Below, in pieces: positions 3,598 to 43,649 of a stretch of DNA of 44,594 nt. Location: positions 1 through 44,594 of the forward strand of contig JAPKCQ010000001.1 in the NCBI GenBank assembly GCA_026421165.1, read 5' to 3'. Each line of letters begins with the position of its first letter. The stretch's first letter is position 1. Under the pieces are notes generated by a model. The model was not told the origin of the DNA. It did not search any database and saw only the letters and a program-made list of their open reading frames with translations. Source of the stretch: Lewinella sp. (lineage in GTDB: Bacteria > Bacteroidota > Bacteroidia > Chitinophagales > Saprospiraceae). A program made the position numbers and the translations under genes.

Positions 3598-3616
3598 GGC
3601 GCTGTCGCAGGATGCA
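3598..3616 (+). repeat. Dispersed motif copy 1 (long form)
   Basis: GGCGC TGT CGCAGG ATGCA, followed by AAG. Confidence 0.85.
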
Positions 3617-3712
3617 AAGAAAGTTTTAAGGAGTAACACGGGGCAGATGCGCGGCTTTCCTAAACGGTGAGAGCTTGTGGAAGACTAAATCCAACATTTT
3701 TATATAGAATCC

Positions 3713-3743
3713 TTGCTTTGTAAAACAAATGTGTTTAAATTTG
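3713..3743 (+). promoter_or_regulatory. Bacteroidota primary-sigma promoter
   Basis: TTG (3713-3715), 20-nt spacer, TAAATTTG (3736-3743); matches TTG-N19-21-TAnnTTTG. Confidence 0.65.
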
Positions 3744-3826
3744 TGTCGATTAGTTGTTACTTCCAACATTTATTTGATTCGCGTTATTTGATTATTTGTC
3801 CTTCCTGGTTGCAAAAACAAAGTAAA

Positions 3827-4717
3827 ATGTCCGTTACCTCAACTCCCCAGTCCACTGCCGTGGGCCGTTTCGCCGCGAAGGCTTTTGATTACGCTATACA
3901 TTATGGTGTAGAGATTTCCCTGATCGTACTGATCTTATACTTCTGTATTAGTAGGGGGCTGAGTTTCAGTATTGATATTTACGACCCGCTTCCTCCGCAG
4001 GGTGGGGCGGTGGTATCTGAGGCGTCGGTTGGTGGCGAATGGTTCTCGGGTATTGGGTCTTCGGCCACTGCTCTGTTAACTTCTTTCACAGCACCTGCTA
4101 CCGAGCCCATTTTACTTACCGACGAGAAAACAGTTGCCATTGCATCAGCGCACGATGGATTCAACGAAGTAGCTCGTACCGATGACCCCGCACCACACAT
4201 CAGTAATATGACGCTCGTTCTCAGCCCCGACTATGGCGAACGTAAGGGCCTGCCTAAGCGCATCATCAAAGCCAAAAAAGAACGCGTGCAGGTCTACCTG
4301 CGTCGCTACGCCAAAACTGCCCAGCAGGAAATGGCTGCTTCGGGAATCCTCGCTAGCATAACCTTGGCGCAGGGGCTGCTGGAGTCCAACGCAGGAGATA
4401 GTAAATTAGCGGTGAATTCCAATAATCACTTCGGGATCAAATGCCGTAGTAAATGCCTAGGTTGTACCTGCCGCAACTACGGGGACGACACCCGCTACGA
4501 CATGTTTCGGGTCTTTACCTCCGCCGCCGAATCCTTTCGTGAACACTCCAAGTTGCTCAATACAAAACGCTACGCCAAACTAAAAAGCTACGGTACTGAC
4601 TACGTTAAGTGGGCCCACGGACTAAAATCTTGCGGCTATGCGACCGACAAAAAATATGGCCATAAACTGGTGAAGATCATCGAGAACCTCGGGCTGGATC
4701 AGTATGATAGAAGCTAG
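3827..4717 (+). CDS. Membrane-anchored GH73 glucosaminidase (FlgJ-like peptidoglycan hydrolase)
   Basis: LAQGLLESNAG (catalytic Glu), NNHFGIKC and GYATD motifs plus an N-terminal TM segment. Start moved to ATG 3827, downstream of the promoter and after an A-rich leader. Confidence 0.88.
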   Translation: MSVTSTPQSTAVGRFAAKAFDYAIHYGVEISLIVLILYFCISRGLSFSIDIYDPLPPQGGAVVSEASVGGEWFSGIGSSATALLTSFTAPATEPILLTDEKTVAIASAHDGFNEVARTDDPAPHISNMTLVLSPDYGERKGLPKRIIKAKKERVQVYLRRYAKTAQQEMAASGILASITLAQGLLESNAGDSKLAVNSNNHFGIKCRSKCLGCTCRNYGDDTRYDMFRVFTSAAESFREHSKLLNTKRYAKLKSYGTDYVKWAHGLKSCGYATDKKYGHKLVKIIENLGLDQYDRS

Positions 4718-4860
4718 AAACTAGGGTTGCCGCACGGTGAAACGCAATTGTTGACTTCGCTCGTCGTAGCTCTGCCTTGGAGAATAAAGCAAATTTCTTA
4801 GGTAGTGCCGCCGCGAACGAAGTGAGCATTTCCTTGCGACAGCACTAGTTTTTAGCTTCT
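4709..4860. repeat. ~150-nt imperfect palindrome between convergent genes
   Basis: AGAAGCTAGAAACTAGGGTTGCCGCA pairs with TGCGACAGCACTAGTTTTTAGCTTCT, and inner ACTTCGCTCG pairs with CGAACGAAGT. The arms begin with CTAG heptamers at the GH73 stop codon. Confidence 0.85.
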
Positions 4861-4888
4861 GACGCCTAGTTTACCGCAGCACGAGTTC

Positions 4889-5746
4889 CTAATTTCTACC
4901 CTTAAGCCACTCAAGCACAATCTCGTTAAAGGCGAGCCGGTCCTCCAAGTTACAAAGGTGCCCCCGCCCTTCCATAACTACGAGCTCCGCCAGCGGCTGG
5001 TGCTTCTTGGTGTAGCGTTTGGCGGCATCCAGAAAAACGTGGTCCTGGCTTCCGTTGATGAGTAGGCTTGGCGTCTTCAATTCTTGGTTGTAGAATTTGC
5101 CGACTACGCTGAAGAAATCTTTGTACAGCCCGAGCCACTTCAGGAACTCACCCGGCGCGAGTTTTAGTGACTGCTTCCGGTACTGATCGCGGCTAAACTT
5201 GTGGTTCTTACGTGGCATCACGACCAGGATGAACCCGTCGTATATCCAACGGAAGGGGACGAAGTAGCTCATGAACTTACCGAAGTGGGCGAAATTGCTG
5301 ATCCGCCAGTCTGCCTTAAAGACTCCTCCACACATGATCATGCTCATCATCATTTCCGGCCGGCGAGCGTTGAGCTTTTGTAAAATGATGCTGCCTAACG
5401 ACAAGGCAATGAAGTGGGCCTTAGTTACACCAGCATGAGCAATGGCTCGCTCCAGGTCATCGGCGATGATGTCGAAATCGTAGACGCGGTAGCTAGGTTG
5501 CAGGTCTTTGCTGTAACCATGGTCGCGCATGTCGATTAAAAGCAGATTATAGAAAGGCTTAAATCCCTCGATCTGAAATTTCCAGGTAAGGGAGCTACCG
5601 CCTGCGCCGTGGATGAAAATCATCCATTCAGCGTCGGCCTTGTTCGTAAGGTGGGTGGTATAGTTAAGTAGATTTTGCAAATAAGCGCGCTTATACCGCA
5701 AATGTAACACGTGGAAGGCGATTGCTTGTGGGAAGGAGCTAATCAT
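4889..5746 (-). CDS. Alpha/beta-fold hydrolase
   Basis: FIHGAGGS, DMRDHGYS, nucleophile elbow ALSLG, GSQD and GHLCN. Start uncertain. Confidence 0.88.
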   Translation of the reverse strand: MISSFPQAIAFHVLHLRYKRAYLQNLLNYTTHLTNKADAEWMIFIHGAGGSSLTWKFQIEGFKPFYNLLLIDMRDHGYSKDLQPSYRVYDFDIIADDLERAIAHAGVTKAHFIALSLGSIILQKLNARRPEMMMSMIMCGGVFKADWRISNFAHFGKFMSYFVPFRWIYDGFILVVMPRKNHKFSRDQYRKQSLKLAPGEFLKWLGLYKDFFSVVGKFYNQELKTPSLLINGSQDHVFLDAAKRYTKKHQPLAELVVMEGRGHLCNLEDRLAFNEIVLEWLKGRN

Positions 5747-5995
5747 GTCTTCGGTAATAGAGCAAAATAGTCTCTATCCCTTAAAGTGTAAGGCTTCTGT
5801 TAACCCAATGTATCAATACTTATCACAAAAATACGCATACATTAACCCAGCATTAAATCATGAACACCAACGTATTATATCGAAGGAATCGACTTGTTCG
5901 TCTTCAGTTCCTGATGGATATTTGCTACATCCTATTAAGGAAATCTCCCACCCATCCGCAAGGAAATAGTCTTTACTGCTTCGATTTTAGACCAA

Positions 5996-6604
5996 ATGGC
6001 TTACCTCCAAACAAATCAATACCTTCAACTCGGCATCTTCCGCCTTGAGGATGTTTGTGTGCGGGTACAAGACGGAATGACGGGCTTTCTACGCACAGCA
6101 GCACTGGAGAAAAACCCTGAAATAGAAGCAACCTTTCGATGGTTACGGAAGCGAAAAATTCGCATTGCGCTCATTAGTGACTCGAACCGTGAAGACACCG
6201 AAATTTTGCTGGATCGCTTAGACTGGAGGGTAGGGGAGGATGAATTGATCCAGCTCGTTTTAACCGATCAGGAAGAAGAAAAGAATCCTGTCCGAAAAAT
6301 CCTTGACTTAGCAAATTTACCGGATGGCCACCTTGCTTTTTCCTTACTTGATACTCCACGTTTGCTGCAAGCTGCTCATTTTAGCGAGGTACATTTTAAC
6401 CTAGGCGTCATGAACGGCCGCTGTAACTACGCGGAGCTGAACGGGACACCCCATCACGCTCTACTCGACGGGGCAGTACAGCTGCCCGACTTCCTTTTGA
6501 AGAACCTGCCGGCGGTTAATCCTTTAGCCGACCAGCCAGTCCGCTCCCGAGTCCGTCTTCCCTTGCTTTGGTTGCCGCGGAGAATGGCTGGGTTTATGTG
6601 GTAG
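5996..6604 (+). CDS. Degenerate HAD-superfamily (phosphonatase/PhnX-like) protein
   Basis: C-terminal DTPRLLQAA..GVMNG..AELNGTPHHALLDGAVQLPDFL resembles phosphonatase-like HADs. The motif-I Asp appears replaced (LGIFRLED). Confidence 0.6.
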   Translation: MAYLQTNQYLQLGIFRLEDVCVRVQDGMTGFLRTAALEKNPEIEATFRWLRKRKIRIALISDSNREDTEILLDRLDWRVGEDELIQLVLTDQEEEKNPVRKILDLANLPDGHLAFSLLDTPRLLQAAHFSEVHFNLGVMNGRCNYAELNGTPHHALLDGAVQLPDFLLKNLPAVNPLADQPVRSRVRLPLLWLPRRMAGFMW

Positions 6605-6647
6605 GATAGTCGCGTAAATCTCACATCGAATCCCCCCCTTAGAGTGT

Positions 6648-6655
6648 TACCTTTG
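6648..6655 (+). promoter_or_regulatory. -7 element of the ftsY promoter
   Basis: TACCTTTG ending 30 nt before the ATG. Confidence 0.6.
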
Positions 6656-6684
6656 CTTCTCGTAAACCGCTAACACTAAAAGAC

Positions 6685-7662
6685 ATGAGCTTTTTCAAGA
6701 AATTTTTCAATAAAGAGAAGAAAGAAGACCTCGATAAAGGACTGGAAAAAACCAAAGCTGGCTTCTTTGACAAGATCAGCAGAGTGGTAGCGGGCAAAGA
6801 CACCGTCGATGAAGAGGTACTCGATGAGTTAGAGACGATCCTGATCTCCAGCGACGTAGGCCTGGATACCACCATAAAGATTATCGAACGCATCGAAGCC
6901 CGAGTAGCCGAAGATAAATACGTCAATACCAGCGAACTGCACCAAATTCTCCGTAGCGAGATTGTAGATCTGCTTTCAGCGCAGAACGACGTTGACTACG
7001 AAGGCTACGAATTACCCCTCACCGAAGGAGGTGGCCCCGCCATCATCCTGGTGGTTGGCGTAAATGGTGTGGGTAAAACCACCACCATCGGCAAAATTGC
7101 CAACCAGTACCAGAAGCAGGGTAAAAAAGTAGTTCTCGGTGCCGCGGATACCTTCCGGGCTGCAGCCGTCGATCAGCTCAAGATATGGGCTGATCGCGTA
7201 GGCTGTGATTTCTACTCAAAAGGGATGTACACCGACCCCGCCGCAGTGGCTTACGAAACTACCAAGTACGCAATCGACAATAATTGTGACGTGGCGATAA
7301 TTGACACGGCAGGCCGCTTGCATACCAAGTTCAACCTGATGAAGGAACTTTCTAAAATAAAAAGATCAATTACCAAGGCGCTTCCTTCTGCGCCCCATCA
7401 GGTCCTCTTGGTCCTGGACGCAACCACCGGCCAAAATGCCATTGAGCAAGCCAAGGCTTTTACCGAGGCAACCGACGTAACTGCACTGGCCCTTACGAAG
7501 TTAGATGGAACCGCAAAGGGCGGAGTAGCCATTGGGATCACCGATTCTTTCCGTGTTCCAATTCGTTATATCGGCGTGGGAGAGGGCATTGAGCACCTCC
7601 AGGTTTTTAACAAACGGGCCTTTGTGGACAGTTTGTTTGGCGGCGAAATGAAAATTTCTTAA
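6685..7662 (+). CDS. ftsY: Signal recognition particle receptor FtsY
   Basis: GVNGVGKTTTIGK, DTFRAAA, DTAGRLH and TKLDGTAKGG. Confidence 0.98.
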   Translation: MSFFKKFFNKEKKEDLDKGLEKTKAGFFDKISRVVAGKDTVDEEVLDELETILISSDVGLDTTIKIIERIEARVAEDKYVNTSELHQILRSEIVDLLSAQNDVDYEGYELPLTEGGGPAIILVVGVNGVGKTTTIGKIANQYQKQGKKVVLGAADTFRAAAVDQLKIWADRVGCDFYSKGMYTDPAAVAYETTKYAIDNNCDVAIIDTAGRLHTKFNLMKELSKIKRSITKALPSAPHQVLLVLDATTGQNAIEQAKAFTEATDVTALALTKLDGTAKGGVAIGITDSFRVPIRYIGVGEGIEHLQVFNKRAFVDSLFGGEMKIS

Positions 7663-7713
7663 CTTTTCTTTGGGGATTTGTGCACATTTTTTGAAAGAGT
7701 TAGTTTACTCTTC

Positions 7714-7890
7714 CGAATCGCGCAAACGAAAGAAGCCGATATCATCCGGCAAGATGAAATCGGCTCCAGTTTCTTCGTGTGATTCGTAAGCTTCAGTGAG
7801 GACCACGGCAATGGTTATTCTCGGTGAAGTAGGTTTTTTATTCTCTAATTCAGCTTCTTTGTTCAGTGAACGGGAAGGAGAAGCTGTGAC
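7714..7890 (+). promoter_or_regulatory. Structured intergenic RNA with three hairpins, two with an identical CGGCAA loop; possible attenuator
   Basis: Stems 7714-7786 and 7790-7830 have CGGCAA loops (7747-7752, 7806-7811). A T-tract follows at 7834-7842, then a third stem at 7851-7886. Confidence 0.5.
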
Positions 7891-7908
7891 ATACAAATTC
7901 ACACTATT

Positions 7909-10900
7909 ATGTATAAAGTAACCCGCTTACTTTTGTCAACACTGTGCATGTTGACGTGGGCAAACGCCTCACTCTCAGCACAAGTTACAACTTACGAAGT
8001 CAGCTTTGCAAGTATTTCCTTCATAAATCTTCAATTAAATGATGACTGCGCCCGCGACATCATTTATATGAACCTCCTCGCAGGAGACGATGATGTCGAC
8101 GGCGACGGTATCGTGCCTCCCCAGGAAGCCTTTATCATTGAAATTGACGACGACGCGCCAGAGAACGGCCCCATCGTCGACGGCACTGGAATGTTTAACT
8201 ATACTATTCGTCCTAATCCGGACAGTGTGGTTATAGGCTTCACCTATGGCTCCGGAATAATCACCGCCCGCGATGCGACGCCACCCCAGCAGTTTGGCGT
8301 TGCCTCCCTTAGTTCAAGCTCATTCTTTACTCCCCAGCTGCAGAACCTTACCATAAATACCCTGCCGTCCAATGTCTCGCGAACCTTCCTGGTGGATGGA
8401 ACAACGAGCTTTCCCATTATGAGTTCCGTCTCTGCCGAACTCGTAAACTGCCTTCTCGTGAGCGGTGCAATTCCACGCTTCACGGATGCTTGTTCCAGCG
8501 TCACCGTCGTTGTTTCCGACGAAATAATTGAGAACGACCCCTGCGGTGATATCATCATCCGGCGGACCTTCATAGCTACCGACGGTAGTGCCGATTTTGC
8601 CTCGCCTGATGGCCTTGGTGGTAACGGCGAAACCGTTGTCAGCTACAACATCGTACTCGAACGGCCAAGCGCTGATAGTGTGTTTGCGCCGATTGACCTC
8701 GTTGCCTACGAATGCAGCGATCCCGCGCTTGTCAACGGTAACTTTCCCGACCCAAGCCCAGAAGATTATCCTTTCCTTAATGGACCAGACGGTCCGGTTT
8801 TCCTAGGTGACGTTTACGGCAACGTCGGCGCATCCTTTACCAACAGCGGTTCCGTACAGCTCTGTAACAATACCATTAAGTACGTTCGGACTTATACCGT
8901 CATCGACTGGTGTAACACCGATAACGTCCAGACCTTTACTCAACTCGTGAAAGTTGGCGATACCGGCGCACCCACTATTTTGCATCCTACCCAGGATCTC
9001 AACTTTGATCAGGTAGCTGACGGCGGTCCACTTGTGTTCAGTACCAATGCTCCCGGCTGTGGTGCTTTTATAGTCACTAGCCTGGGCGGCCTTAGCATCA
9101 CCGATGGTTGCTCTCAACTGATGAGCGTTACCGCTTTTGTACTCCTTCATGGCGACGAAAATAATATGACCGGAGCGATCGACGTAAATGCGGCCAACGC
9201 AAGCAACCGCCTGACGCCTTTCTTGCCCGCCGGTGCACACACCCTTCGCTACGTAGCTGAGGACGAGTGTGGAAACATAGCAACCTCTGACCTCGATATC
9301 CTTATTGAAGACCACTCCGGCCCGGTAGTTATCGTTGAAGACGCTCTCAATGTAGCCCTTAGCAACAGTGGCTTTGCTACTGTGCTGGCAACGGACCTCG
9401 ACGAAGGCTCCTACGATGGCTGTACTGACATCACAATTGAGATTGCCTTCGCCAACGTTAACTCTCTACTACCCATTGGCACCTTCGGCCCGAGCATAAC
9501 CCTGAGCTGTATCGACCTTGACCAGGAGGTAACCGGCATTCCGGTGATCATCCGCGTAACCGATGAAAACGGCAATACGAACAACCGGATGTCCGTCCTC
9601 AACGTGGTGGATAATACGGCCCCGATTTGTATCGCACCAGGTAGCATAAATCTTACTTGTGCCGAAGCCGACCAGTTACTACCCGAAGACGTGAACGTGT
9701 TCTTCAACGCTGACCCCGAGGGTACGGTCGAGATGTTCAACGAACTCTTTGGAGAGGTGACTACGCTGGATAATTGTGGCAACGAATTTTCTTCCCAGAG
9801 CATCGTCTCCAACGTCAATGACTGTGGAACGGGTACGGTAAACCGTTCCTTTACCGTGACCGATGGGCAGGGCTTTGCTTCCGCCCCCGGTTGTGAGCAG
9901 ATCATCAACATACGCGGTGTTCGTAACTATACCGTTGAGTTCCCCGGCGATGCCTCGGCAACCTGTGGTAATATGCCCGACGTGAATGACTTCGTCTACA
10001 CCCCATTTGGTTGCGATTTGGTAGTGTCCTTCGTAGAAGTGGATACCTTCTTTGCTGCCTCCGACGCCTGTTTCAAAATCCGCCGGACGATCGAGATCAT
10101 CAACTGGTGTGAATACGACGGAAACGGAAACTTCTACACCATCCGCCGTGATGCGGATAACGACGGAAATACGGAGGAATCCACTTTCCTACACGTCATA
10201 CCCAACGGCAATATCGACGCTGCGGACGACGTCGCCGTATTGGATCAGGACGGCAACCGCAACAACATGAATAACATTGGCTTCGTAGACGTAGACGATA
10301 ATTTCACTGCCTTCGGTGTGGATAGCGATAACGACGGAGACACTGGCTACGCAAATTCTGAAAGCCGTGGTGCTTTTCGCTACATCCAGTTCATTAAGGT
10401 GTACGACAACATCGCCCCGACCATCACTAATATTTCTTCCGACGTGGCCAACAGTGAAGACTGCAGTGGCGGCGGTATTCAGATCGACTATACCGTTACG
10501 GATGATTGCGCAGGCGCAAACATCAGTACTAGCGTTGAACTCGACCTCAACTTCGTACCCGGCGGCGGCTTTAATGCCACCCGAACCTTGGGGTCTAGCG
10601 AAGTATTTGACGACGGAAACGGAAACTTTAACGTGATCCTCTCCGGCTTGGTGGCCGGCCAGCACGCCATCCGTGTAGCAGCCAACGACGGCTGTGGTAA
10701 CGTGAACGGACGCATTATTCAGTTTGATATTCAGGACAATAGCTCGGTAACACCGATCTGTATTGGTCGCCTCACCTTCGTTCTGATGAACAACGGAGCC
10801 GGTGGCGGAGAAGCGCTCGTTGAAGCGGACGACTTTATAGTCAGCATCGACGGCAACTGCAACAACGTAGAGGTAGATTACTCGATCTACCGGGACTTCG

Positions 10901-12285
10901 AGTTCAATAATCCCGACTTCAGCCCCGGAACGAACCGGCCCGATTTTCCGATCGGCTGCGACGATGTCGGTGAGGTTATTGTCCAGGTTTACGCCTTCAC
11001 GCCCAACGGTGAGGCTGAGTTCTGTACGGTTCGGGCCGTCGTTGAAACCTCTCCAACGGTTAGTTGTACTTCCGCTAACGTGGCTTCCTTATCCGGTTTC
11101 ATTACCTCTCCCGCTAACGAACTACTCGACGGTATTGAGGTCCATATCAGCGACATGGACACGATGGACGATATGCTCTACACCGATGCCAACGGCAGCT
11201 TCCTCTTCCCGGCGCTTTCCGAAGGCCACGGGTACATGATCCGCCCCAGTATGCCGGACGAAGTGAACCTCCGCCGGGTCAAAACCAGCGACATCACCAT
11301 CATTGGTGCTCACGCCCTCGGTGCCATCCTGATAGAAGAGCCTTACCGTATGCTTGCGGCCGACGTGAACGCTGACGGTTACATCGATATAGGTGATATG
11401 ATCGCCATTCGCCGCGTTATTCTTGGCCTTGACCAGACCTTTACCGAAGGGCCGACCTGGCGCTTCATTCGCCGCGACTTCGACCTTAACGGCCTGGCCG
11501 AAGGTTGGAACCCGAGCATCTTTCCTACTACCTACCAGGTGGAAGAGCTGTCTGGCCACAACCGTGAGGCAGACTTCATAGCCATCGAGGTTGGTGATGT
11601 ATTCGTGCAGCCGGGTAGCCGCGAAAGCCACGCGCTTACCGCAACCGACGCAGTACTAGCCGCGGGGGAAACCATCGACCTAGAGATTACCGCTAACGAG
11701 TTGACCGGTTTCCAGGGCACGATCGACGCCGCTTCCGGCCTTGTGATCGAAGGGTGGAGCTCCGAAGTACTCGGTGCTGGAAACGTCAACGATGCTTACC
11801 TCCGCCAGGGCTTGCTCGCAGTGAGTTACGACGGTCAGGAGTTGGACGGCACTGCTTCCGTCCTCACTCTGCACCTGCGCGCCGTCGCCCAGAATATCCG
11901 CATAAGTGACCACCTTAGCGTTACGGATAGAATGACCTACCCCGAAGCGATTCTGAAGGGTGGCAACACGGCGACCTTGAGCCTTGAATTCAGCGAGACC
12001 ACGGGCGGCGCAGACATTGTACTGCACCAGAATTTTCCCAACCCGGTGACCGCTCAGACCAACATCGTATTTGAACTCCCGACCTCCAGCGAAGTACTAC
12101 TGGAAGTGTATGACCTGCAGGGCCGCCTCGTAACGAAGCGCTCTATGGAAGGCCAAACCGGGCGCAATACGATTACCCTTTCGACCTACGACGACCTGAA
12201 CAATTATACCGGAGTTCTGACCTACACGATTACCGTGGGAAAGACCCGCCTTACGAAACGCATGACCGTGGTTGCCGCCCGGTAA
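7909..12285 (+). CDS. Large secreted Cys-rich repeat protein with dockerin-like motif and T9SS type A C-terminal domain
   Basis: Signal peptide; repeated Ig/HYR-like units (DxCGN, RTxxVIDWC, DNxAP); DVNADGYIDIGDMIAIRRVILG; C-terminal LHQNFPNP..YDLQGR..KRMTV. Confidence 0.88.
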   Translation: MYKVTRLLLSTLCMLTWANASLSAQVTTYEVSFASISFINLQLNDDCARDIIYMNLLAGDDDVDGDGIVPPQEAFIIEIDDDAPENGPIVDGTGMFNYTIRPNPDSVVIGFTYGSGIITARDATPPQQFGVASLSSSSFFTPQLQNLTINTLPSNVSRTFLVDGTTSFPIMSSVSAELVNCLLVSGAIPRFTDACSSVTVVVSDEIIENDPCGDIIIRRTFIATDGSADFASPDGLGGNGETVVSYNIVLERPSADSVFAPIDLVAYECSDPALVNGNFPDPSPEDYPFLNGPDGPVFLGDVYGNVGASFTNSGSVQLCNNTIKYVRTYTVIDWCNTDNVQTFTQLVKVGDTGAPTILHPTQDLNFDQVADGGPLVFSTNAPGCGAFIVTSLGGLSITDGCSQLMSVTAFVLLHGDENNMTGAIDVNAANASNRLTPFLPAGAHTLRYVAEDECGNIATSDLDILIEDHSGPVVIVEDALNVALSNSGFATVLATDLDEGSYDGCTDITIEIAFANVNSLLPIGTFGPSITLSCIDLDQEVTGIPVIIRVTDENGNTNNRMSVLNVVDNTAPICIAPGSINLTCAEADQLLPEDVNVFFNADPEGTVEMFNELFGEVTTLDNCGNEFSSQSIVSNVNDCGTGTVNRSFTVTDGQGFASAPGCEQIINIRGVRNYTVEFPGDASATCGNMPDVNDFVYTPFGCDLVVSFVEVDTFFAASDACFKIRRTIEIINWCEYDGNGNFYTIRRDADNDGNTEESTFLHVIPNGNIDAADDVAVLDQDGNRNNMNNIGFVDVDDNFTAFGVDSDNDGDTGYANSESRGAFRYIQFIKVYDNIAPTITNISSDVANSEDCSGGGIQIDYTVTDDCAGANISTSVELDLNFVPGGGFNATRTLGSSEVFDDGNGNFNVILSGLVAGQHAIRVAANDGCGNVNGRIIQFDIQDNSSVTPICIGRLTFVLMNNGAGGGEALVEADDFIVSIDGNCNNVEVDYSIYRDFEFNNPDFSPGTNRPDFPIGCDDVGEVIVQVYAFTPNGEAEFCTVRAVVETSPTVSCTSANVASLSGFITSPANELLDGIEVHISDMDTMDDMLYTDANGSFLFPALSEGHGYMIRPSMPDEVNLRRVKTSDITIIGAHALGAILIEEPYRMLAADVNADGYIDIGDMIAIRRVILGLDQTFTEGPTWRFIRRDFDLNGLAEGWNPSIFPTTYQVEELSGHNREADFIAIEVGDVFVQPGSRESHALTATDAVLAAGETIDLEITANELTGFQGTIDAASGLVIEGWSSEVLGAGNVNDAYLRQGLLAVSYDGQELDGTASVLTLHLRAVAQNIRISDHLSVTDRMTYPEAILKGGNTATLSLEFSETTGGADIVLHQNFPNPVTAQTNIVFELPTSSEVLLEVYDLQGRLVTKRSMEGQTGRNTITLSTYDDLNNYTGVLTYTITVGKTRLTKRMTVVAAR

Positions 12286-12317
12286 TGCTGGTTCTTTAGT
12301 GTGAACCGAAACTTTTA

Positions 12318-12373
12318 GAGAGTAGCGCGACCCTGCCTTTTCCTTCGGGAATTGGTGGGGTTATGCTCTTTTT
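12318..12373 (+). terminator. Probable intrinsic terminator with cUUCGg loop
   Basis: ACCCTGCC..TTCC-TTCG-GGAA..GGTGGGGT, followed by a T-rich tract. Confidence 0.55.
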
Positions 12374-12424
12374 AGGATAGGCGGTGGTTATTTGTGGTTC
12401 ACTACTTACTACACTATCTATTTG

Positions 12425-12443
12425 GGCGCGGCCGCTGGATGCA
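12425..12443 (+). repeat. Dispersed motif copy 2 (long form, 1 mismatch)
   Basis: GGCGC GGC CGCTGG ATGCA, followed by AAG. Confidence 0.75.
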
Positions 12444-12625
12444 AAGACAGTTGAAAAGCAAGGGACTACCGTTGCAGGCGAGGAGGGATGAATACGGTCT
12501 GCCTTCTCTACAGCAGGCCCGTGGCGGGGTGTCTTAGCCGACCGCCTTACGCTACTGCCGGACGTGGCGGTAGACCGTCGTCGACTTTTTAGCGGATGGG
12601 CTGTTCTGGAGAGGTATTTCAACAG

Positions 12626-12661
12626 AAAAGGTCCCGAATTTCCGGAGGGAAATTCGGGACC
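12626..12661 (-). terminator. Intrinsic terminator
   Basis: Perfect 14-bp stem GGTCCCGAATTTCC/GGAAATTCGGGACC with TTTT on the minus strand, about 40 nt after the stop at 12703. Confidence 0.85.
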
Positions 12662-12702
12662 AGGGAAATATTTAGCAGGCCAACAACTGGCTAAATAGAA
12701 AC

Positions 12703-15700
12703 TTATTTAACGAATTTACGGGCAATCAACTCGCCGCTTAGTTGCTTAATTCTAAGGACGTAGGTGCCTTGGGGAAGGCCTGATACGTCGATGTCTTGCT
12801 TTTCGGTAGTAATTGTCACTTGAGTAATTTGCTGACCGGCTGCATTGAAAATTATCGCTTCGCCTTCGCCGTTCACTACCGTCAGGTGGTTCACTACGGG
12901 GTTAGGGAAAATGCTGGTACCAGTTTCTAGGTCAGTGCCGTTGCGTACGCTGATGATCTCGGAGTACCCGAACGTACCGTCTAGGTCGATCTGCTTGAGG
13001 CGGTAGTAAGTCACCTCGCTGGTCAGTGGCGCATCGAAGTACGCGTAGTTGTGCTCGCTGAAGCGGGACTGGTTGGCGGGCACGAAAGCTACTTGTTCGA
13101 AGCGCCGGCCATCGTCAGACCGTTCTACGTCAAAGCCGGAGTTGTCCACTTCTTCAGTAGTGGTCCAGTTGAGCATATTGCCTTTGCCGGTGGGGGTGCC
13201 GTTGAAGCTTAGGAATTCCACGGGGAGGGCAGATGCTGGGAAACCGAGCATAAACAGACCGTTACCGTGGGTACCAAGTACTGCTTGGTTATCACTGGGA
13301 CGCAAACGCATGAAACTGCCCACGGCATAGCCGATGTCGTTCGGGCCTGGAGTACCCGTAACGCTTCCGACTCTTTCCCAAGTCGTAGTCGCGCCACTCA
13401 GGACATCCGTTGCGTAAAGACCGGTAGAGGTGCCAACCAGGTAGATGGTTTGAGTTCCTACTCTAACCATAAGGGCGGAGCGTACAGAAGCCAGGGCGAC
13501 TGCTGATGCGCCAGGACCTTCTACTTCTGTCCAGGCCGGAGAAGCTACGCTAGCATCAGTAGTGTGCCAGACACTGGAAACACTGTAATTAGAGTAAGTT
13601 ACCATGACTTCTTTATCGTCTTCGGGGTTGACACTGATGTCACTTACAAAACCAGCACCTGGAGTAATTTCTACAGGAGCTGCACTTGCACTACCATAAG
13701 CAGGGTCGCTCAGGCGGAAAACCTTCCCGCCTACGGTACCGAAGTAAAGTTTACGGGCGGCGTCAGAGGCACTGTAGCTTCCGTTTGCGGCACCAGCGGC
13801 GCTGCGGGTGGTTTCGAAGGTGGAAATAGCCGAGCCTGCTACTACTCCGGTCATATCTTCCCATCCGGTACTTGCATCTCCGGTAATGGTGCCGTTTGTA
13901 ATTCCACTTGCGCTAGTAGTACGTAGCAGGTTGCCACCTGTGGTTGGGTAGTAGAGAAGCTGAGTGTTGTCAGCATCAAGGTAAATACGGGAGAGGAAGC
14001 CTTGGTCCTTTCCTGTGGGCGTAATATAGGTCTGAACACCATCGTCAATACGCATAAGACCACCGAATTGCCAGGCAGTCAAAATAGAATAATTAGCGAA
14101 ACTGGTGCCGCTAATAATGGCAACAGAGGTGCCATCTACTGTGGGGCCGACCTCAAGGCCTGCGGCAGTCGTAGGCTGGATAGTGAAGGCATTGTCCTGG
14201 GCGGCACCGGCGACGAACTCAGACCCATTCACTGGATTAATATCGGCACTGTAATACTGGTAAGTAACGTATCCGTTATTTTTCGATGACCAATCATAGC
14301 CGTTGTCGTCTCCGGAGGCTGTTTTGATGGTTCCGGTTACGTCCGTACTGCGGAGACCACCGTCATTGCCCGACCACATTATATCATCATTGGTTGGGTC
14401 GAAAATAAGGATGTGGTTGTCGACGTGAAGGTTAATAGTATTAGCACCCTGCTGGCTTCCTCCGATGAAGTCGTAAACTTCCGTGGAGATGTTGTAGCGG
14501 TAAATCTCAGTTCCGCCAAAGTAAATATAATTGGCATCGTTAGGTTTCCCGACCATGCACATATTGTAACCACCCTGTAGCTCTAGCACTTTCGTTGGAG
14601 CACTACCAGTGTTGCAATTGCCAACCTTATCGGTGAGGTTGTTCCATACACCGCTTACCAAGACTTGAAGGCCAGCTCCAGAATCTCCAGAGTTAGTGCA
14701 GCTAAATGTAACGTTAAGTTGGAAGAATGCGGCAATATTTGGAGTGTTCCCGAGGTTAGTGAGAACGATACGACCAACGCCGTTGGCATCCAACTGAGCT
14801 CCAGTACGGACTTGCGTCCAGCTTATACCATCAGCAGAAGAGTGGATACCTCCGTTGGCGTCTGCGCCGTTAATCGACGCGTAAAAAGTGCTAGAGGGGG
14901 AGTTGTAGATAAGGTCACCGAAACGGCCAAAAGTTGACGCTGACCCCAGTACCGCGCTCCAGTTGGCGCCGCCGTCATCAGACCTCAGCACCGCTTCGCC
15001 TACGGATGCCAAAACATCACCGTTAGTAGGATTAACCAGTATTTTACCGATGTAGTCAAAATCATTGTCAAATATCACTTGGTTGCCGGCCCGTGTCGAC
15101 GCAAGCGGTGACCAGCTTGCGCCATTATCCGTAGACTTGAGAATACCGTAGCCAAGGTAGGTTGCTCCTCCTCCCGAAGTAGAGTTGCCAACCTGTTCAC
15201 CGGTACCTGCGTACCAGGTATCCTGATTGCCTGTACGCGGATCTTGCGCTACGGTGGTAAGGTTATGGATCTCTCCTGCTGGGGTGACGCGTATCCAAGA
15301 GCCTCCACCGTCGGTAGATCGGAATATTCCACCCGATACGCCACCGGAAATAATTACGCCGGTACTGGCGGTGGTATTGCGCACGTCAAAACCAATTGCT
15401 CTGGTACGTCCACCATAGTTGTCCGGTCCTTTGGAGGTGATGGTAATGGCGGGCAATGTTTTACCCGGCTCGACTAGTGACATCGGGAAAGCTGGGGTGG
15501 TATAAGCCGCTTTCATTTCTGCTTCGCGAACGCCTCTAGGAATTAGTCCAGTTGTAGGGTTCTTGAGCATGTTGAATTCAGCTTCCATTCGTGCGACAGG
15601 GTTTTCGCGCTTTTCGCGGTCCATTTCAGTGGTGGAGAAAGTAGTTCTGTCGTCTTGGGAAGTATCACATCCGGTAAATACGGCGAGCAGACAAGCCACT

Positions 15701-15732
15701 ACAGTAAGTTTAAGTAGGTATATAGGTTTCAT
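12703..15732 (-). CDS. BNR/Asp-box beta-propeller (VPS10/GH74-like) protein with T9SS type A C-terminal domain
   Basis: RSTDGGGSW, KSTDNGASW, RSDDGGANW and SSADGISW boxes; LPVEFLSF Ig-like module; IFPNP..LPQGTYVLRI..KFVK CTD. Start moved to MKPIYLLK, a signal peptide ending FTGC. Confidence 0.85.
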   Translation of the reverse strand: MKPIYLLKLTVVACLLAVFTGCDTSQDDRTTFSTTEMDREKRENPVARMEAEFNMLKNPTTGLIPRGVREAEMKAAYTTPAFPMSLVEPGKTLPAITITSKGPDNYGGRTRAIGFDVRNTTASTGVIISGGVSGGIFRSTDGGGSWIRVTPAGEIHNLTTVAQDPRTGNQDTWYAGTGEQVGNSTSGGGATYLGYGILKSTDNGASWSPLASTRAGNQVIFDNDFDYIGKILVNPTNGDVLASVGEAVLRSDDGGANWSAVLGSASTFGRFGDLIYNSPSSTFYASINGADANGGIHSSADGISWTQVRTGAQLDANGVGRIVLTNLGNTPNIAAFFQLNVTFSCTNSGDSGAGLQVLVSGVWNNLTDKVGNCNTGSAPTKVLELQGGYNMCMVGKPNDANYIYFGGTEIYRYNISTEVYDFIGGSQQGANTINLHVDNHILIFDPTNDDIMWSGNDGGLRSTDVTGTIKTASGDDNGYDWSSKNNGYVTYQYYSADINPVNGSEFVAGAAQDNAFTIQPTTAAGLEVGPTVDGTSVAIISGTSFANYSILTAWQFGGLMRIDDGVQTYITPTGKDQGFLSRIYLDADNTQLLYYPTTGGNLLRTTSASGITNGTITGDASTGWEDMTGVVAGSAISTFETTRSAAGAANGSYSASDAARKLYFGTVGGKVFRLSDPAYGSASAAPVEITPGAGFVSDISVNPEDDKEVMVTYSNYSVSSVWHTTDASVASPAWTEVEGPGASAVALASVRSALMVRVGTQTIYLVGTSTGLYATDVLSGATTTWERVGSVTGTPGPNDIGYAVGSFMRLRPSDNQAVLGTHGNGLFMLGFPASALPVEFLSFNGTPTGKGNMLNWTTTEEVDNSGFDVERSDDGRRFEQVAFVPANQSRFSEHNYAYFDAPLTSEVTYYRLKQIDLDGTFGYSEIISVRNGTDLETGTSIFPNPVVNHLTVVNGEGEAIIFNAAGQQITQVTITTEKQDIDVSGLPQGTYVLRIKQLSGELIARKFVK

Positions 15733-16156: not shown

Positions 16157-16174
16157 TGTGCCTGCGGTTGCGCC
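16157..16174 (-). repeat. Dispersed motif copy 3 (2 mismatches)
   Basis: Minus strand GGCGC AAC CGCAGG CACA, followed by ATGGAAGG. Confidence 0.7.
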
Positions 16175-16323
16175 TAAAAAACAGCCTGGCTTGGTATTAT
16201 CCCAGGAAAACGTACCTTCATTGCCAATAACTGCTATCAGGTCCACAAGTCAGTAAAATCGCTGATAGTTTGTGAATCCCGGCAGTATTACCCATTTTAA
16301 CCAATAAACCAAAACCCTAAAAT

Positions 16324-20871: not shown

Positions 20872-20889
20872 GGCGCGGACGCAGGTGCA
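20872..20889 (+). repeat. Dispersed motif copy 4
   Basis: GGCGC GGA CGCAGG TGCA, followed by ATGTAAG. Confidence 0.9.
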
Positions 20890-21146: not shown

Positions 21147-21164
21147 TGCACCTGCGGCCGCGCC
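21147..21164 (-). repeat. Dispersed motif copy 5
   Basis: Minus strand GGCGC GGC CGCAGG TGCA. Confidence 0.9.
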
Positions 21165-28429: not shown

Positions 28430-28447
28430 GGCGCGGTCGCAGGTGCA
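28430..28447 (+). repeat. Dispersed motif copy 6
   Basis: GGCGC GGT CGCAGG TGCA, followed by GTGGAAAGG. Confidence 0.9.
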
Positions 28448-28473: not shown

Positions 28474-28504
28474 TTGTCCGCATTGCTTTTTATTCGTACT
28501 TTTG
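28474..28504 (+). promoter_or_regulatory. Candidate internal promoter upstream of rplV
   Basis: TTG (28474-28476), 20-nt spacer, TACTTTTG (28497-28504). Confidence 0.6.
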
Positions 28505-28619
28505 TACCCGCGTTCGCGCCCCCTTTAATTGAGTGAAGGTAGAGTAAGGTCTCGTGGCATTGTGCTTAAAGCTAAATGTTGCCCGCTTTACTAACCCGTT
28601 CCCTCGAAAACCTCCAATA

Positions 28620-32746: not shown

Positions 32747-32747
32747 G

Positions 32748-35602: not shown

Positions 35603-35620
35603 TGCACCTGCGTCCGCGCC
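35603..35620 (-). repeat. Dispersed motif copy 7
   Basis: Minus strand GGCGC GGA CGCAGG TGCA, followed by GT. Confidence 0.9.
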
Positions 35621-37719: not shown

Positions 37720-39108
37720 ATGCTAAACAAAATTGTAAAAACTGTACGTCTTTCCCTCGATGACAAAGGGTACGATTACACTGGCGGGTCGGTCCGCAAA
37801 GCGATCGCCCTTCTGGCTATTCCGATGATGCTGGAGATGGCAATGGAATCTGTCTTTGCGCTGGTGGATACTTTTTTCGTCGGTAGAATTGGCAACGGAG
37901 CACTTACTACCGTCGGTCTTACCGAGGTGATGATGACTCTGGTGTACAGCATCGCCATCGGGGTAAGTACGGCGCCAATGGCGATGGTTTCTCGTTTTAT
38001 AGGCGAGAAAGACCCGGCAAAGGCTGGCTTGGCGGCAGGGCAGGCCATTCTGCTCGGTGTATTCGTTAGCTTACTGATTGCCATACCTGGCTTTGTGTAC
38101 GCCGGAGACTTGCTGCGGTTTATGGGCGCTACCGAAACTGTGGTCGCCGAGGGGGTTGGGTACACCCGTATTATGTTCGCGACCAATGTGGTGATTATGC
38201 TGCTGTTCGTGATCAATGGTATATTTCGGGGAGCTGGGGACGCCGCCAAGGCGATGCGGGTACTCTGGCTTGCAAATGGGATCAACATTGTCTTGGATCC
38301 GATCTTCATTTTTGGACTGGGGTTTATTCCGGCAATGGGGGTGGAGGGGGCCGCAGTAGCCACTTCTATTGGTCGAGGTATTGGTGTGGGTTACCAATTG
38401 TATTTATTATTTGGTAACCGCTCAGTGGTTAAAATGGGCGCACGGGCTTGGCTTGTGAATTGGGAAATGCAAGGGCGGATCGTGAAAATCGCTGCGAACG
38501 GAGCGCTTCAGTACTTGATTGCTTCTGCGAGCTGGGTTTTTCTGATGCGAATTGTGGCCGGCTTTGGTGAGGCGGCTGTGGCGGGCTACACCGTCGCGAT
38601 ACGGCTTATCATCTTTACGATGTTACCAGCTTGGGGACTAGCAAATGCGGCGGCGGCCTTTACTGGGCAGAACCTCGGGGCAAAGAAACCGGACAGGGCG
38701 GAACAAGGAGTCTGGTTGGCGCTGAAAATGACCGTGATTTACTTTGGGGTACTGTCTGTTCTCTACTATTTTTTGGCGGGGCCGCTGGTGCAGGGCTTTG
38801 TTAAAGACGCAGAGGCTGTTGGCTATGGTATTGAGGCTCTACGCGTCTTTGCCATCGGCTACGTGTTTTTTGGCCTAGGCATGATTCCGGTTCAGGCGCT
38901 CAATGGCGCCGGTGATACCCGGATGCCAATGCTGATGAATTTCGCCTGCTTCTGGTTACTGGAAATCCCGTTGGGCTACTGGCTGGGCTTGGAGATGGGG
39001 TATGGGGTAGAAGGTGTCGTCTGGGCGGTAGTAATTGCTGAGGTAGTGCTCTCTGGGCTCGCCCTGTGGGTGTTCACGCGGGGGAAATGGAAGCTTATGG
39101 AGGTTTGA
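37720..39108 (+). CDS. MATE family efflux transporter
   Basis: About 12 TM segments; LVDTFFVGRIG, GIFRGAGD, NIVLDPIFIFG..MGVEGAAVAT and GQNLGA. Confidence 0.95.
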   Translation: MLNKIVKTVRLSLDDKGYDYTGGSVRKAIALLAIPMMLEMAMESVFALVDTFFVGRIGNGALTTVGLTEVMMTLVYSIAIGVSTAPMAMVSRFIGEKDPAKAGLAAGQAILLGVFVSLLIAIPGFVYAGDLLRFMGATETVVAEGVGYTRIMFATNVVIMLLFVINGIFRGAGDAAKAMRVLWLANGINIVLDPIFIFGLGFIPAMGVEGAAVATSIGRGIGVGYQLYLLFGNRSVVKMGARAWLVNWEMQGRIVKIAANGALQYLIASASWVFLMRIVAGFGEAAVAGYTVAIRLIIFTMLPAWGLANAAAAFTGQNLGAKKPDRAEQGVWLALKMTVIYFGVLSVLYYFLAGPLVQGFVKDAEAVGYGIEALRVFAIGYVFFGLGMIPVQALNGAGDTRMPMLMNFACFWLLEIPLGYWLGLEMGYGVEGVVWAVVIAEVVLSGLALWVFTRGKWKLMEV

Positions 39109-39272
39109 TCTTATGCCTGCGGATTGTCACCTCTGGGAAGTGATCAGGATTTTTGTTTCTTTTCATTGGAAAAGATCGCCTTCGGCAGGGCGGTAACGTC
39201 GGAGAAATGATAGCCTTGGGATAGACCATAAAGCGTTGCCCTTCAACCCGTACAGTACCGGCGCTAGCGCCC

Positions 39273-42340: not shown

Positions 42341-42343
42341 CTT

Positions 42344-42362
42344 TGCATCCTGCGTTTGCGCC
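42344..42362 (-). repeat. Dispersed motif copy 8 (long form)
   Basis: Minus strand GGCGC AAA CGCAGG ATGCA, followed by AAG; 2 nt after the stop of 42365..43060. Confidence 0.85.
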
Positions 42363-42364
42363 GC

Positions 42365-43060
42365 TTACTTACCGACATCTCCTGAGAGAATCATCTTGAA
42401 CCACCACCAAACCAACAGTGCGGTATCGCCTTGATAATCCTGTTCGCGCAATGCTTCTTTATAGGCTGCCATGACTGCTTCGTCGGACGTCAGGAAATTG
42501 CGGAGTGTTTTCAACAGCTTGGTATAGCGCGGGAAGTCAGCGGCCGGCGGAATATCTTTTGCACCGAGCCGGGCGCAGATCAGCATCAGATCGGCGGTAG
42601 AGTAGGGGGCATACACTTCGGGGTACTGCCCCATAAGGTAAAGCGAGGCCATATTATAGTCATCGTCGTGGTTGTGACTGGGCGTTTTGTCTTTGGGGTG
42701 CTGGTCGCGAAAGCGGTTGAATAGCTCGTTGATGTAAAAAACGAAGCGCCCGATGCGGCCTTCGAGCTGGCGGTCTTCGCTGAAGAGGTCGCGAAAGGCA
42801 TCGCGGACGAAGTCGGGCTCCCAACGCATCAGGGCTAGCATCGCGCGTTTGGGGTCGTAGCCGCCACGGCGGTAATGCCTGCGGTTGGTTTTGGAGTCCA
42901 GCGCTTTGTCGTAAACTTCGGCGAGGTCTTTGGCCTCTACGTTAAAGTGGGCTTGCCAGTTTCGCTGGGTTTCCCAGAGGGGTAAAAATACCTGGGCCTC
43001 TTCAGTTTTTAGCCACTCCGGGAAGGTGGCGAGGTAGGCTTTTATCTTGGGTACCTGCAT
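42365..43060 (-). CDS. Hypothetical protein resembling the N-terminal domain of some McrB-like AAA GTPases
   Basis: WETQRNWQAHFNVEAKDLAEVYDKAL, EPDFVRDAFRDLFSE..LEGRI and SLYLMGQYPEVYAPY; no P-loop. Confidence 0.55.
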   Translation of the reverse strand: MQVPKIKAYLATFPEWLKTEEAQVFLPLWETQRNWQAHFNVEAKDLAEVYDKALDSKTNRRHYRRGGYDPKRAMLALMRWEPDFVRDAFRDLFSEDRQLEGRIGRFVFYINELFNRFRDQHPKDKTPSHNHDDDYNMASLYLMGQYPEVYAPYSTADLMLICARLGAKDIPPAADFPRYTKLLKTLRNFLTSDEAVMAAYKEALREQDYQGDTALLVWWWFKMILSGDVGK

Positions 43061-43112
43061 ATTCCCACAAAGATGCAGAAAAATGAGTGGGCGGGTTAAC
43101 CATAAAGAATCA

Positions 43113-43177
43113 TAGGGACGCGAATAGAATAAAACCGGATTTTCTGACCTAGCGTTTTTATTCTATTCGCGTCCCTA
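43113..43177. mobile_element. Miniature inverted-repeat element with 20-bp perfect TIRs flanked by TA
   Basis: TA-GGGACGCGAATAGAATAAAA, 21-nt spacer, TTTTATTCTATTCGCGTCCC-TA. Confidence 0.55.
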
Positions 43178-43196
43178 AGAGAGTACAAAGCCAGCG

Positions 43197-43649
43197 TCAT
43201 TCGTGGGTGACTTCAGTAACTCTTGCTGGGTGTCCGGTAGTATTTAAGAAATTCATCAGACTGTCTTTTCCTGGTTTTCCGGAAAGCCTCTCGTCGTACA
43301 GAAATAGGTCTACACCGGGCTGTAGGAGCCACGGCAGGCGTGCGGAGAGTTCCGCTGCGCTTTCACTGGGGTAGCCGCTTACCAGCACGCGGTAACCTGC
43401 GGCGGTCAGGCTGTCTTTGTAGGCTTTAAGGTGGTCATTGTTCCACTGTGTGGTGTCGGTCAGGAGAACCAGGTTACGGGACACGGCTCGTTCGGGTGGG
43501 GGCTCATTTGGCGCGCACGCAGGTGCAATGAAAGTTAATAGGAGCAGGGTGGACAGTACCGCCGTTCGCTTGAAGGACGGGAAATTCTCGCCGATCCGCG
43601 AAATTTGCCGGAATCCGAGATTCAATTCGTGGAGAAGGGTAGTGTTCAT
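43197..43649 (-). CDS. Putative lipoprotein, truncated/degenerate SGNH (TesA-like) fold
   Basis: KRTAVLSTLLLLTFIAPAC signal and lipobox; GYRVLVSGYPSESAAELSARLPWLLQPGVDLF resembles TesA block II-III; overlaps the queG stop by 4 nt. Confidence 0.55.
   Translation of the reverse strand: MNTTLLHELNLGFRQISRIGENFPSFKRTAVLSTLLLLTFIAPACAPNEPPPERAVSRNLVLLTDTTQWNNDHLKAYKDSLTAAGYRVLVSGYPSESAAELSARLPWLLQPGVDLFLYDERLSGKPGKDSLMNFLNTTGHPARVTEVTHE
43510..43527 (+). repeat. Dispersed motif copy 9 (inside a CDS)
   Basis: GGCGC GCA CGCAGG TGCA, followed by ATGAAAG. Confidence 0.85.

Follow-up and report, generated by a model that had tools for sequence, protein, structure and literature searches.

The window analysed here, a single contig of 44,594 nt (44.6 kb; C226 of its assembly) from a Lewinella sp., contains ribosomal protein genes such as rpsL, rpsS and rplV and carries, scattered between and within its genes, copies of a short motif, GGCGC-NNN-CGCAGG-(A)TGCA. 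An earlier note made from the letters of this stretch had claimed nine copies, mostly solitary and eight of the nine intergenic. Pattern matching recovered all nine at the coordinates and on the strands given there: five short-form and two long-form copies are exact, and near copies lie at 12425 (plus strand) and 16157 (minus strand). Shuffling gave expectations of 0.02 and 0.10 in the window, even with two mismatches allowed, and 0 of 100 shuffles reached the observed counts. Nine is too low a number, since at least five further copies are present (4091, 11871, 28504 and 39255 on the minus strand, 38775 on the plus strand). Nor is solitude the rule, as the copy at 28430 is the left half of a face-to-face pair with the one at 28504. 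The copies are as follows.

3598..3616, plus strand: long-form copy AGGATGCA, exact; intergenic, between divergent genes
4091..4107, minus strand: compensatory T-A stem variant (GCT-loop-AGC), inside gene 3827-4717 on the antisense strand; missed in the earlier note
11871..11889, minus strand: variant with a 6-nt loop, the usual form in the relative G001, inside the long gene 7909-12285; missed earlier
12425..12443, plus strand: long-form copy in which the variable base behind the stem is T, one mismatch to the long form; between convergent genes
16157..16174, minus strand: degenerate copy, stem intact and tail altered, two mismatches to the short form; intergenic
20872..20889, plus strand: short-form copy, exact; after the stop of gene 19536-20843, facing the copy at 21147
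21147..21164, minus strand: short-form copy, exact; upstream of rpsL, 186 bp from a canonical -7 promoter box at 21350
28430..28447, plus strand: short-form copy, exact; rpsS-rplV spacer, left member of the face-to-face pair
28504..28520, minus strand: right member of the rpsS-rplV pair; missed earlier
35603..35620, minus strand: short-form copy, exact; rpmD-rplO spacer, with RNA contigs running through it
38775..38791, plus strand: in-frame copy encoding LAGPLVQ, inside gene 37720-39108 (MATE-like, a label given from inspection); missed earlier
39255..39271, minus strand: weaker copy with C after the stem and a TAC tail, between convergent genes; missed earlier
42344..42362, minus strand: long-form copy, exact; immediately past the stop of gene 42365-43060
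43510..43527, plus strand: short-form copy, exact; antisense (encoding APACAP) inside gene 43197-43649

The host genome (G000) comprises 4.50 Mb in 485 contigs and is 98.9% complete; our own caller found 3,296 genes in it, with 81% of the sequence coding. Its genus is Neolewinella (Saprospiraceae in the broad sense), as the uL2 proteins of its congeners are identical to, or cluster with, Neolewinella-labelled proteins, and our genus sample comprised 47 Neolewinella genomes with G000 included. A scan of the whole genome against a Markov background, which the earlier note had proposed as the check, found hundreds of copies where almost none were expected: 416 exact short-form and 88 exact long-form copies, compared with order-5 Markov expectations of 0.025 and 0.004. 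With a relaxed consensus, GGCG[CAG]NNNCGC[AGT]GG[AG]?T[GA]C, the count rose to 1,069 versus 7 for the reversed pattern used as control, and a looser, structure-based pattern gave 1,350 matches versus 76. The genome carries about 1,100-1,300 copies. No description of the motif or of a strand-specific tiling was found in the literature covered, which left most subscription papers and supplementary repeat tables outside its scope. Rfam returned no relevant match in the window, only four low-complexity plant or animal microRNA matches under the gathering score. On viral contigs at least 123 loci match the word, mostly single matches or chance matches in Gly-Ala repeats. At six viral loci (L096, L108, L079, L067, L118 and L119) a copy with full flanks was seen, twice within 6 kb in L096; these are possible Neolewinella phages or prophage flanks.

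The element is a small hairpin with conserved flanks, laid out as TTTTG-GC-N-loop(4-6)-N'-GC-[A/G/T]GG(A)TGCA followed by a purine-rich tail. The spectrum of single mismatches showed that GGCG, CGC, GG, T and C are near-invariant, that a four-base stretch is free and that the base after CGC varies; the extra base before TGCA, which separates the long from the short form, is optional. GCG can pair with CGC to form a 3-bp stem, so that what had been called a variable central triplet is in fact four bases, the loop of a hairpin. Likewise, the 18-19 bp length claimed at first falls short of the conserved footprint of about 45 nt, which includes, at weaker conservation, a 5' T-tract at -7 to -2 and a purine-rich tail in which G[G/C]TT lies around +24 and (A)GCA[A/G], whose position shifts by a few bases, around +31 to +36.

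That the stem is read as a structure rests on covariation. Among copies with a strict tail, the third pair (positions 3/8) is G-C in 753, T-A in 25, C-G in 6, G·T in 5, A-T in 3 and non-pairing in 1, so that pairing is retained in 39 of the 40 variants. With a looser tail, 35 T-A copies have normal flanks and obey the spacing rule described below (1 close same-strand pair seen, 12.5 expected), whereas neither T-C (7) nor G-A (5), the single changes, comes with the tail and flank signature, and both look like chance matches. The outer two pairs are fixed in sequence, although pair 2/9 accepts T·G (7 copies) and pair 1/10 has eight non-pairing C-C cases. Loops of five (31 copies) and six bases (48 copies) are real variants that also keep the spacing rule (2 seen versus 10.9 expected, and 0 versus 17.8). 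Covariation of the stem argues that one strand is read as structure. Because the wobble pairs are G·T on the GGCG...TGCA strand and A·C on the other, the folding strand would be GGCG...TGCA. By itself the hairpin is weak (-2.6 kcal/mol; mean pairing probability 0.4 over 298 sampled sites at 20 C), so that a protein would have to stabilise the fold. Covariation made no convincing case for longer-range pairing between T-tract and tail (the highest z, among many pairs, was 3.8).

Mutual exclusion operates between copies of one strand, over 2-5 kb, and not between copies on opposite strands. Within 1.7 kb we counted 19 same-strand pairs versus 190 expected, with the ratio returning to 1.0 by about 6 kb; opposite-strand pairs numbered 155 face to face (95 expected) and 66 back to back (100 expected). 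Among pairs 250-1,700 bp apart only 16 of 162 are on the same strand (p=2e-27). The exclusion holds around in-gene sites (15 same-strand, 168 opposite-strand, 149 expected) as well as around intergenic ones (17, 124 and 182, respectively). Density is even among contigs (dispersion 0.51), and face-to-face pairs no more than 250 bp apart show a 4-fold excess. From one site to the next, orientation alternates in 492 of 666 cases (74%), compared with 415 +/- 10 and a maximum of 448 in within-contig shuffles, an alternation that follows from same-strand exclusion alone. The canonical promoter word, scanned as a control, showed no same-strand exclusion. The rule recurs in G290 (1 short same-strand gap versus 11.6 expected, n=64 gaps) and, with a different word, in G016 (3 versus 18.5; 40 of 52 neighbours alternate). 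A toy model of single-strand redundancy with a scale of 2.5-4 kb reproduces the curve, while a strand-blind model depletes both classes; the model is illustrative, as strand specificity is built into it and only its scale is informative. Redundancy confined to one strand implies that at no point are both strands judged at once. As a cause of the spacing, deletion between direct repeats lying near each other was rejected, for pairs sharing 8 bp or less are equally depleted (9 versus 94 expected) and the close pairs that survive resemble each other no less than background pairs do. A directional action, which the face-to-face/back-to-back asymmetry might suggest, was dropped, as this asymmetry can arise from the positioning of sites behind stops and ahead of starts.

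Known uptake sequences were measured in the same way. For the uptake signal sequence (USS) of H. influenzae the same-strand observed/expected ratio (O/E) was 0.48 (<540 bp; 178 sites in 240 kb), a depletion partly shared by opposite-strand pairs, and for that of Testudinibacter it was 0.78 (194 sites in 160 kb); both returned to about 1 at longer distance, and alternation was 56% and 59%, respectively. On this comparison measure, within 0.2 mean spacings, the hairpin element has an O/E of 0.10.

The placement of the sites is indifferent to the direction of genes and of replication. Eight of the nine copies first listed in the window are indeed intergenic, but this does not hold for the genome, where 477 of the 1,069 copies (45%) lie inside called genes and 432 of the 3,296 genes carry one. 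Density is 0.13 per kb in genes versus 0.75-0.83 per kb in all three kinds of spacer. In-gene copies are 243 sense and 234 antisense, and those in codirectional spacers split 144/146, an indifference that points to DNA rather than RNA. On the 722 sites that lie on contigs whose leading strand could be called from fourfold-site skew, 357 and 365 fall on the putative leading and lagging strands (p=0.79), compared with 1,250 versus 1,002 for genes, which argues against fork-linked roles. Twenty pieces of the G022 chromosome gave 16/21 and 13/13, in agreement but at low power. The earlier note was therefore right to set aside a polarised KOPS (FtsK-orienting polar sequence) or Chi site, as it was to set aside a regulon operator, the site being genome-wide and non-polarised. 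Within genes there is a reading-frame bias (3 copies in one frame versus 34-135 in the others, five of the six being used), and coding copies spell GAAAGA, ARPQVQ, APAAAP, CTCGRA (often at the end of a signal peptide) and LHLRPRP. In secreted proteins many copies occupy codons 10-25, where they encode the CTCGRA/CTSVRAQ end of the signal peptide, the motif thus shaping signal-peptide sequence.

Orthologous loci show how sites come and go. In spacers we found gain, loss and point decay; at the 28430 site, for example, relatives either hold the copy by point change or have lost it. Twenty in-gene sites have orthologs in the sampled relatives (33 alignments), of which 11 are ungapped, as in GAVAGAV versus EQVNAAV in a protein that is 87% identical, and 9 lie in gapped segments. 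The 38775 site aligns without gaps in all 12 relatives' loci that hold the ortholog and is decayed in G001.

Across the genus the word changes while its architecture persists. GGCG-N4-CGC-N-GGTRC is present in 212-1,651 copies in 34 of the 47 genomes and in fewer than 100 in the remaining 13; 11 of these 13 have related dialects (G305 and G307 have no dialect assigned), and a shared-ends pattern is at least twice the reversed control in 10 of the 13. The dialects told apart in single genomes are listed here.

G001 and G010: GCGRCGGAGCGCAGG(A)TA
G009: TTTTRGACTTCCGCAGGT
G020: a GC-closed hairpin, then AGGGGCAAG
G016: GRCT-NN-CAAAGTAGC, 792 copies, with at most 2 in any other genome

Among the family's other genera, none of 248 genomes has more than 100 matches to the original word with two mismatches allowed, and de novo inspection of 100-160 kb each from G224, G202, G383, G375 and G390 found no comparable dispersed word. 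Within G016, a 25-kb stretch of low GC (G016:C60, about 29,300-54,800; L145-L146) lacks the genome's own word and carries two sites of the G000 type; it is likely an island from another dialect group. The relaxase-bearing contigs of G011 and G012 hold 2 sites in 75 kb versus about 10 expected from genome densities.

Several other repeats were seen along the way. In other Saprospiraceae genera (G149, G278, G186, G173, G232, G261 and others) up to about 820 copies occur of TTTT-R-GCG-N-AAGC-S, a GC-GNAA-GC mini-hairpin after a T-tract, which is not enriched in 145 genomes sampled from other families. In G149 it showed no same-strand exclusion (17 versus 17.9 expected, n=99 gaps, with a looser pattern), and because the spacing rule is absent there we do not count it as the same system; it is possibly an ancestor or sister of the hairpin element. 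G001 has, beside its dispersed dialect word, clustered tandem repeats of 35-36 bp with CGCGGTAGAG (L163, about 182.8-183.1 kb of C43), resembling repetitive extragenic palindromes (REP) or bacterial interspersed mosaic elements (BIME). CTAG-rich tandem repeats of 7/14 bases (CTAGCTC/CTAGTTC type), partly inverted and 3' of genes, lie at 32-250 and 22380-22490 of the window and elsewhere in the genome; they rank among the top gapped words of G000, are separate from the hairpin motif, and have their spacers occupied in relatives by other simple heptamer hairpin repeats. Upstream of rplV (window 28554-28620) a conserved block, GAGTGAAGG..AGAGTA...TTACTAACCCGTTCCCTCG, is kept in G000-like and G001-like genomes, absent from G009, G016, G020 and G224 and without an Rfam match; it is a candidate cis-regulatory RNA.

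The motif is real, not described as far as the literature was searched, and structurally defined; its function we infer. Covariation, indifference to gene and replication direction, and redundancy on the same strand only, taken together, fit a process that acts on single strands a few kb long and picked at random. Natural transformation is the best-known process of this kind. We therefore adopt, tentatively, as the best reading one of the roles that the earlier note had proposed, an uptake or self-recognition signal: the motif may be a species self-tag, read as a hairpin on single-stranded DNA (ssDNA) during natural transformation and spread by biased recombination. Slightly more tentative still is the broader proposal that, tiling each strand every 7-8 kb as a species-specific ssDNA barcode which an undescribed reader checks once the strands are apart, it represents a third family of systems that recognise self DNA in gene exchange, with no earlier member in Bacteroidota and no earlier one that acts on ssDNA structure instead of duplex sequence. 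Transforming DNA is known to pass as one strand through ComEC and to be handed to SSB, DprA and RecA (PMC12378983), and the Bacteroidota species Riemerella columbina prefers its own DNA by a mechanism reported as unknown (PMC12378983, PMC7965970). In the mechanism we envisage, a host protein would bind the hairpin and its flanks at or behind ComEC, after only one strand of the donor duplex is left, and strands a few kb long with a site on them would thereby be favoured in import, protection or RecA loading. If either strand enters at random, each would need sites of its own; where a strand already has a site, another less than a fragment length away would add little and decay, while a site on the opposite strand would never be on the same molecule and so would not be redundant. 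Through biased recombination sites would be driven into spacers, signal peptides and variable loops of proteins, and dialects would arise as the reader and its tag co-evolve. Natural transformation would in this way also account for the dialects and the overprinted proteins, as biased recombination has been described to do for uptake sequences (PMC2817400, PMC2397512).

Several points weigh against this reading. No reader protein was found. The genes comEC, a comEA-like gene and dprA are present in G000 but are generic, and comEC, comEA-like and addA genes are equally found in G224 and G383, which are free of the word in the 100-160 kb sampled; the identities between G000 and G016 (ComEC 38%, the ComEA-like protein 32%, UvrD 73%) reflect a divergence that is not diagnostic. 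Uptake sequences known so far are bound in the form of double-stranded DNA (dsDNA) on the surface of the cell (PMC7811141), and the analogy with them is inexact because the USS is read as dsDNA and lacks such spacing. The spacing itself is as compatible with other processes that take single strands at random as it is with import. The 9 of 20 in-gene sites that are gapped relative to their orthologs are compatible with insertion there, and site density in G000 is flat over quintiles of codon typicality (0.24-0.25 per kb), without enrichment in core genes by this proxy. As for the structure, the hairpin is only marginally stable alone and its folding z-scores are not significant; the loop is almost the same in all T-A copies, which may belong to a single sub-dialect instead of being independent events, and 0.8 Mb from relatives contained no stem swap (61 G-C, 0 others). 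Two observations on gene content stand apart from this. A strong HHH_3 match in a frame of 710-763 amino acids (Tex-like, an inferred label) was seen in G224 and G383 and not found in G000, G016 or G186, a possible loss of Tex. A second large UvrD-family helicase of about 1,080 amino acids lies beside UvrD and the AddA-like protein in G000 (C279:3-1118) and G016 (C104), with no match that strong in G186 or G383.

Other processes on exposed single strands could use such a site. It is unlikely, though worth serious thought, that the hairpin is a stop or licence signal akin to Chi, at which a helicase or nuclease on ssDNA exposed at two-ended breaks, in gaps or in invading DNA is halted or unloaded so that self DNA on either strand is protected, with dialects turning over in an arms race with parasites. 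Even spacing on each strand would keep the path from any random break to a site in the right orientation as short as possible, there are AddA-like helicase-nuclease genes, and the long tail on one side makes the site asymmetric. Such a signal would, however, be expected to show the leading-strand skew that is missing here, its hairpin would have to fold outside the enzyme channel, relaxase-bearing contigs persist nearly free of sites, exact viral matches are mostly single and chance-like, and fast dialect change is unexpected of a repair signal. Somewhat less likely again is a priming or helicase-loading site, where a primase, RNA polymerase or PriA-like protein would start the complementary strand at the hairpin, for instance opposite the T-tract, so that no exposed or imported strand would stay single for more than a few kb. 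In this case the anatomy resembles RSF1010 ssiA, a hairpin whose 5' tail and first G-C pair are specifically read and which has GTG 3' of it (PMC4434180), the tiling of each strand suits template coverage, and priA is present. Yet the long form has no GTG, there is no lagging or leading bias, and a spacing of 7-8 kb is too wide for Okazaki priming. No cognate primase for such reading was found among the families searched in the 47 genomes: of the archaeo-eukaryotic primases, PF08800 occurs in 5 and PF01896 in 0, other families of this type having been left out of the search. The DnaG proteins of two congeners (G002 and G016) are ordinary save for a proline-rich insert; dnaG is missing from the G000 assembly, probably through an assembly gap.

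Spread by copying, with the motif as target or relic of a single-strand endonuclease or transposase (REP with its RAYT transposase, Ssn/NTS or the oriT of a relaxase), appears improbable. Such enzymes do read ssDNA hairpins with an oriented flank (PMC11893778), close face-to-face pairs are enriched, nearly half of the in-gene sites with orthologs lie in gapped segments, 107 of the 1,069 sites have flank sequence in common with one far away, and G000 has three Y1 transposase matches. But no Y1 gene is flanked by sites: two of the Y1 contigs are free of them and one has a single site 0.5 kb away, the matches being near contig ends that cut off the far flanks. In 64 face-to-face pairs the sequences between the two sites yielded only 4 cross-matches, which agrees with the earlier note that this is no classic REP doublet, and its alternative, the core of a REP-like element, is weak in view of the coding share of the copies and the lack of a flanked Y1 gene. 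Likewise, no small GIY-YIG gene was found in G000 (frames of 632 and 483 amino acids only, in an assembly with gaps) or G001 (635 and 476); small ones exist in G002 and G016, where their flanks were not examined. NTS repeats are 2% intragenic and clustered in the account of PMC11893778, whereas the sites here are largely intragenic and over-dispersed, and orthologous spacers show point decay. The MOBP relaxase (PF03432) was found in 5 of the 47 genomes, not in G000, among which other relaxase families were not searched, and on this basis mimicry of a MOBP oriT was rejected. About as improbable is an element at the level of RNA, a hairpin acting on transcripts that arise pervasively in sense and antisense, or a variant promoter. 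The wobble pairs suit RNA as much as DNA, and the reverse strand ..CTTTGCA resembles the 3' half of TAnnTTTG, the Bacteroidota -7 box (PMC9723704), but the conserved A of that box is missing. The canonical -7 word points toward the downstream sense gene in 260 versus 13 cases while the element does so in 193 versus 158 (background 9.6% versus 7.0%), and with no sense/antisense bias toward downstream genes the promoter reading was rejected. RNA contigs, which are weak evidence, being contigs only, start at 21369-21380 in three of four runs (two studies), by the 21350 box and not at 21147, and the X1 and X2 contigs run through the rpsS-rplV pair and the 35603 copy; over 2000-17500 of the window the four runs gave patchy, low cover that shows nothing. 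No relevant Rfam match supports an RNA in the window. A sigma-54 site has the spacing GG-N10-GC, compared with N13-14 here, and was rejected also because a single ordinary rpoN is present in the genomes matched (45 of 47). Least probable of all, to the point of being very doubtful, is a site of chromosome architecture on double-stranded DNA, bound by a nucleoid protein or acting as an oriented barrier to loop extrusion. Alternating neighbours and even density would suit it, but alternation follows from same-strand exclusion, and a stem that accepts pairing-preserving double changes and not single ones, around a loop of 4 to 6 bases, is unlike independent duplex half-sites. The protein-binding site or nucleoid organiser suggested in the earlier note does not fit, at least as an ordinary dsDNA site, with a stem that covaries, G·T on one strand only and strand-specific spacing.

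If the motif is a self-tag, it would be one strong enough to rewrite about one gene in eight, and it makes testable how Bacteroidota prefer their own DNA, with a possible key for transforming degraders of algal polysaccharides. The signal is defined to the base, stem-breaking and compensatory controls can be read from the genome itself, and named, cultured species exist in the genus, so that a reader could be fished with an oligonucleotide. To our knowledge, Pasteurellaceae and Neisseriaceae are the only groups for which it is established that incoming DNA is recognised as self by its sequence, and there the duplex is read; the present element would add a third lineage with an equally abundant, proteome-reshaping signal, different in structure and with a spacing rule that the tested uptake sequences lack.

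Among known systems, USS and DNA uptake sequences (DUS) are the most instructive. Like the hairpin element, they occur as hundreds to thousands of non-palindromic copies in both orientations, with some inverted pairs and lineage dialects, are depleted yet common in genes with a reading-frame bias, and arise by mutation and recombination (PMC2817400, PMC2397512). In contrast to it, they are linear words of 9-12 bp bound as duplex, not a covarying hairpin within an element of about 45 nt, and the Pasteurellaceae USS (the DUS was not measured) shows the much weaker same-strand exclusion and alternation given above. Chi sites, recognised by RecBCD/AddAB, are short linear words of 5-8 nt, skewed to the leading strand and read on a single strand. 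They share with the element the character of an abundant, orientation-specific self-mark, and an AddA-like gene is present here; the element, by contrast, is structured (17-19 conserved nt plus flanks), long, unskewed and variable within a genus. Primosome assembly sites (PAS) for PriA combine a hairpin with single-stranded flanks, in one orientation per strand. The RSF1010 ssiA/ssiB sites with the RepB' primase have the same anatomy, with flanks that are specifically read (PMC4434180), but ssi and PAS sites come one or two to a plasmid or phage and have long stems, whereas about a thousand copies are tiled here and overprinted on genes. The NTS/SRM repeats with their Ssn GIY-YIG nucleases are oriented ssDNA hairpins in hundreds of copies, read on ssDNA to modulate natural transformation (PMC11893778); unlike the 3-bp stem of the evenly tiled, 45% intragenic element, they are 28 nt long, rarely intragenic, clustered and found flanking the ssn gene. 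REP/REPIN/BIME repeats with RAYT proteins are also lineage-specific and abundant, with some inverted doublets, yet they are extragenic, longer-stemmed, copied units, while the pairs here share no inner sequence. Flavo-1 (Rfam RF01705), another Bacteroidota repeat, is similarly indifferent to transcript orientation, and Rfam gave no Flavo-1 match in the window. Whichever explanation holds, an enzyme would read this hairpin on randomly exposed strands throughout the chromosome, unlike any of the systems compared here.

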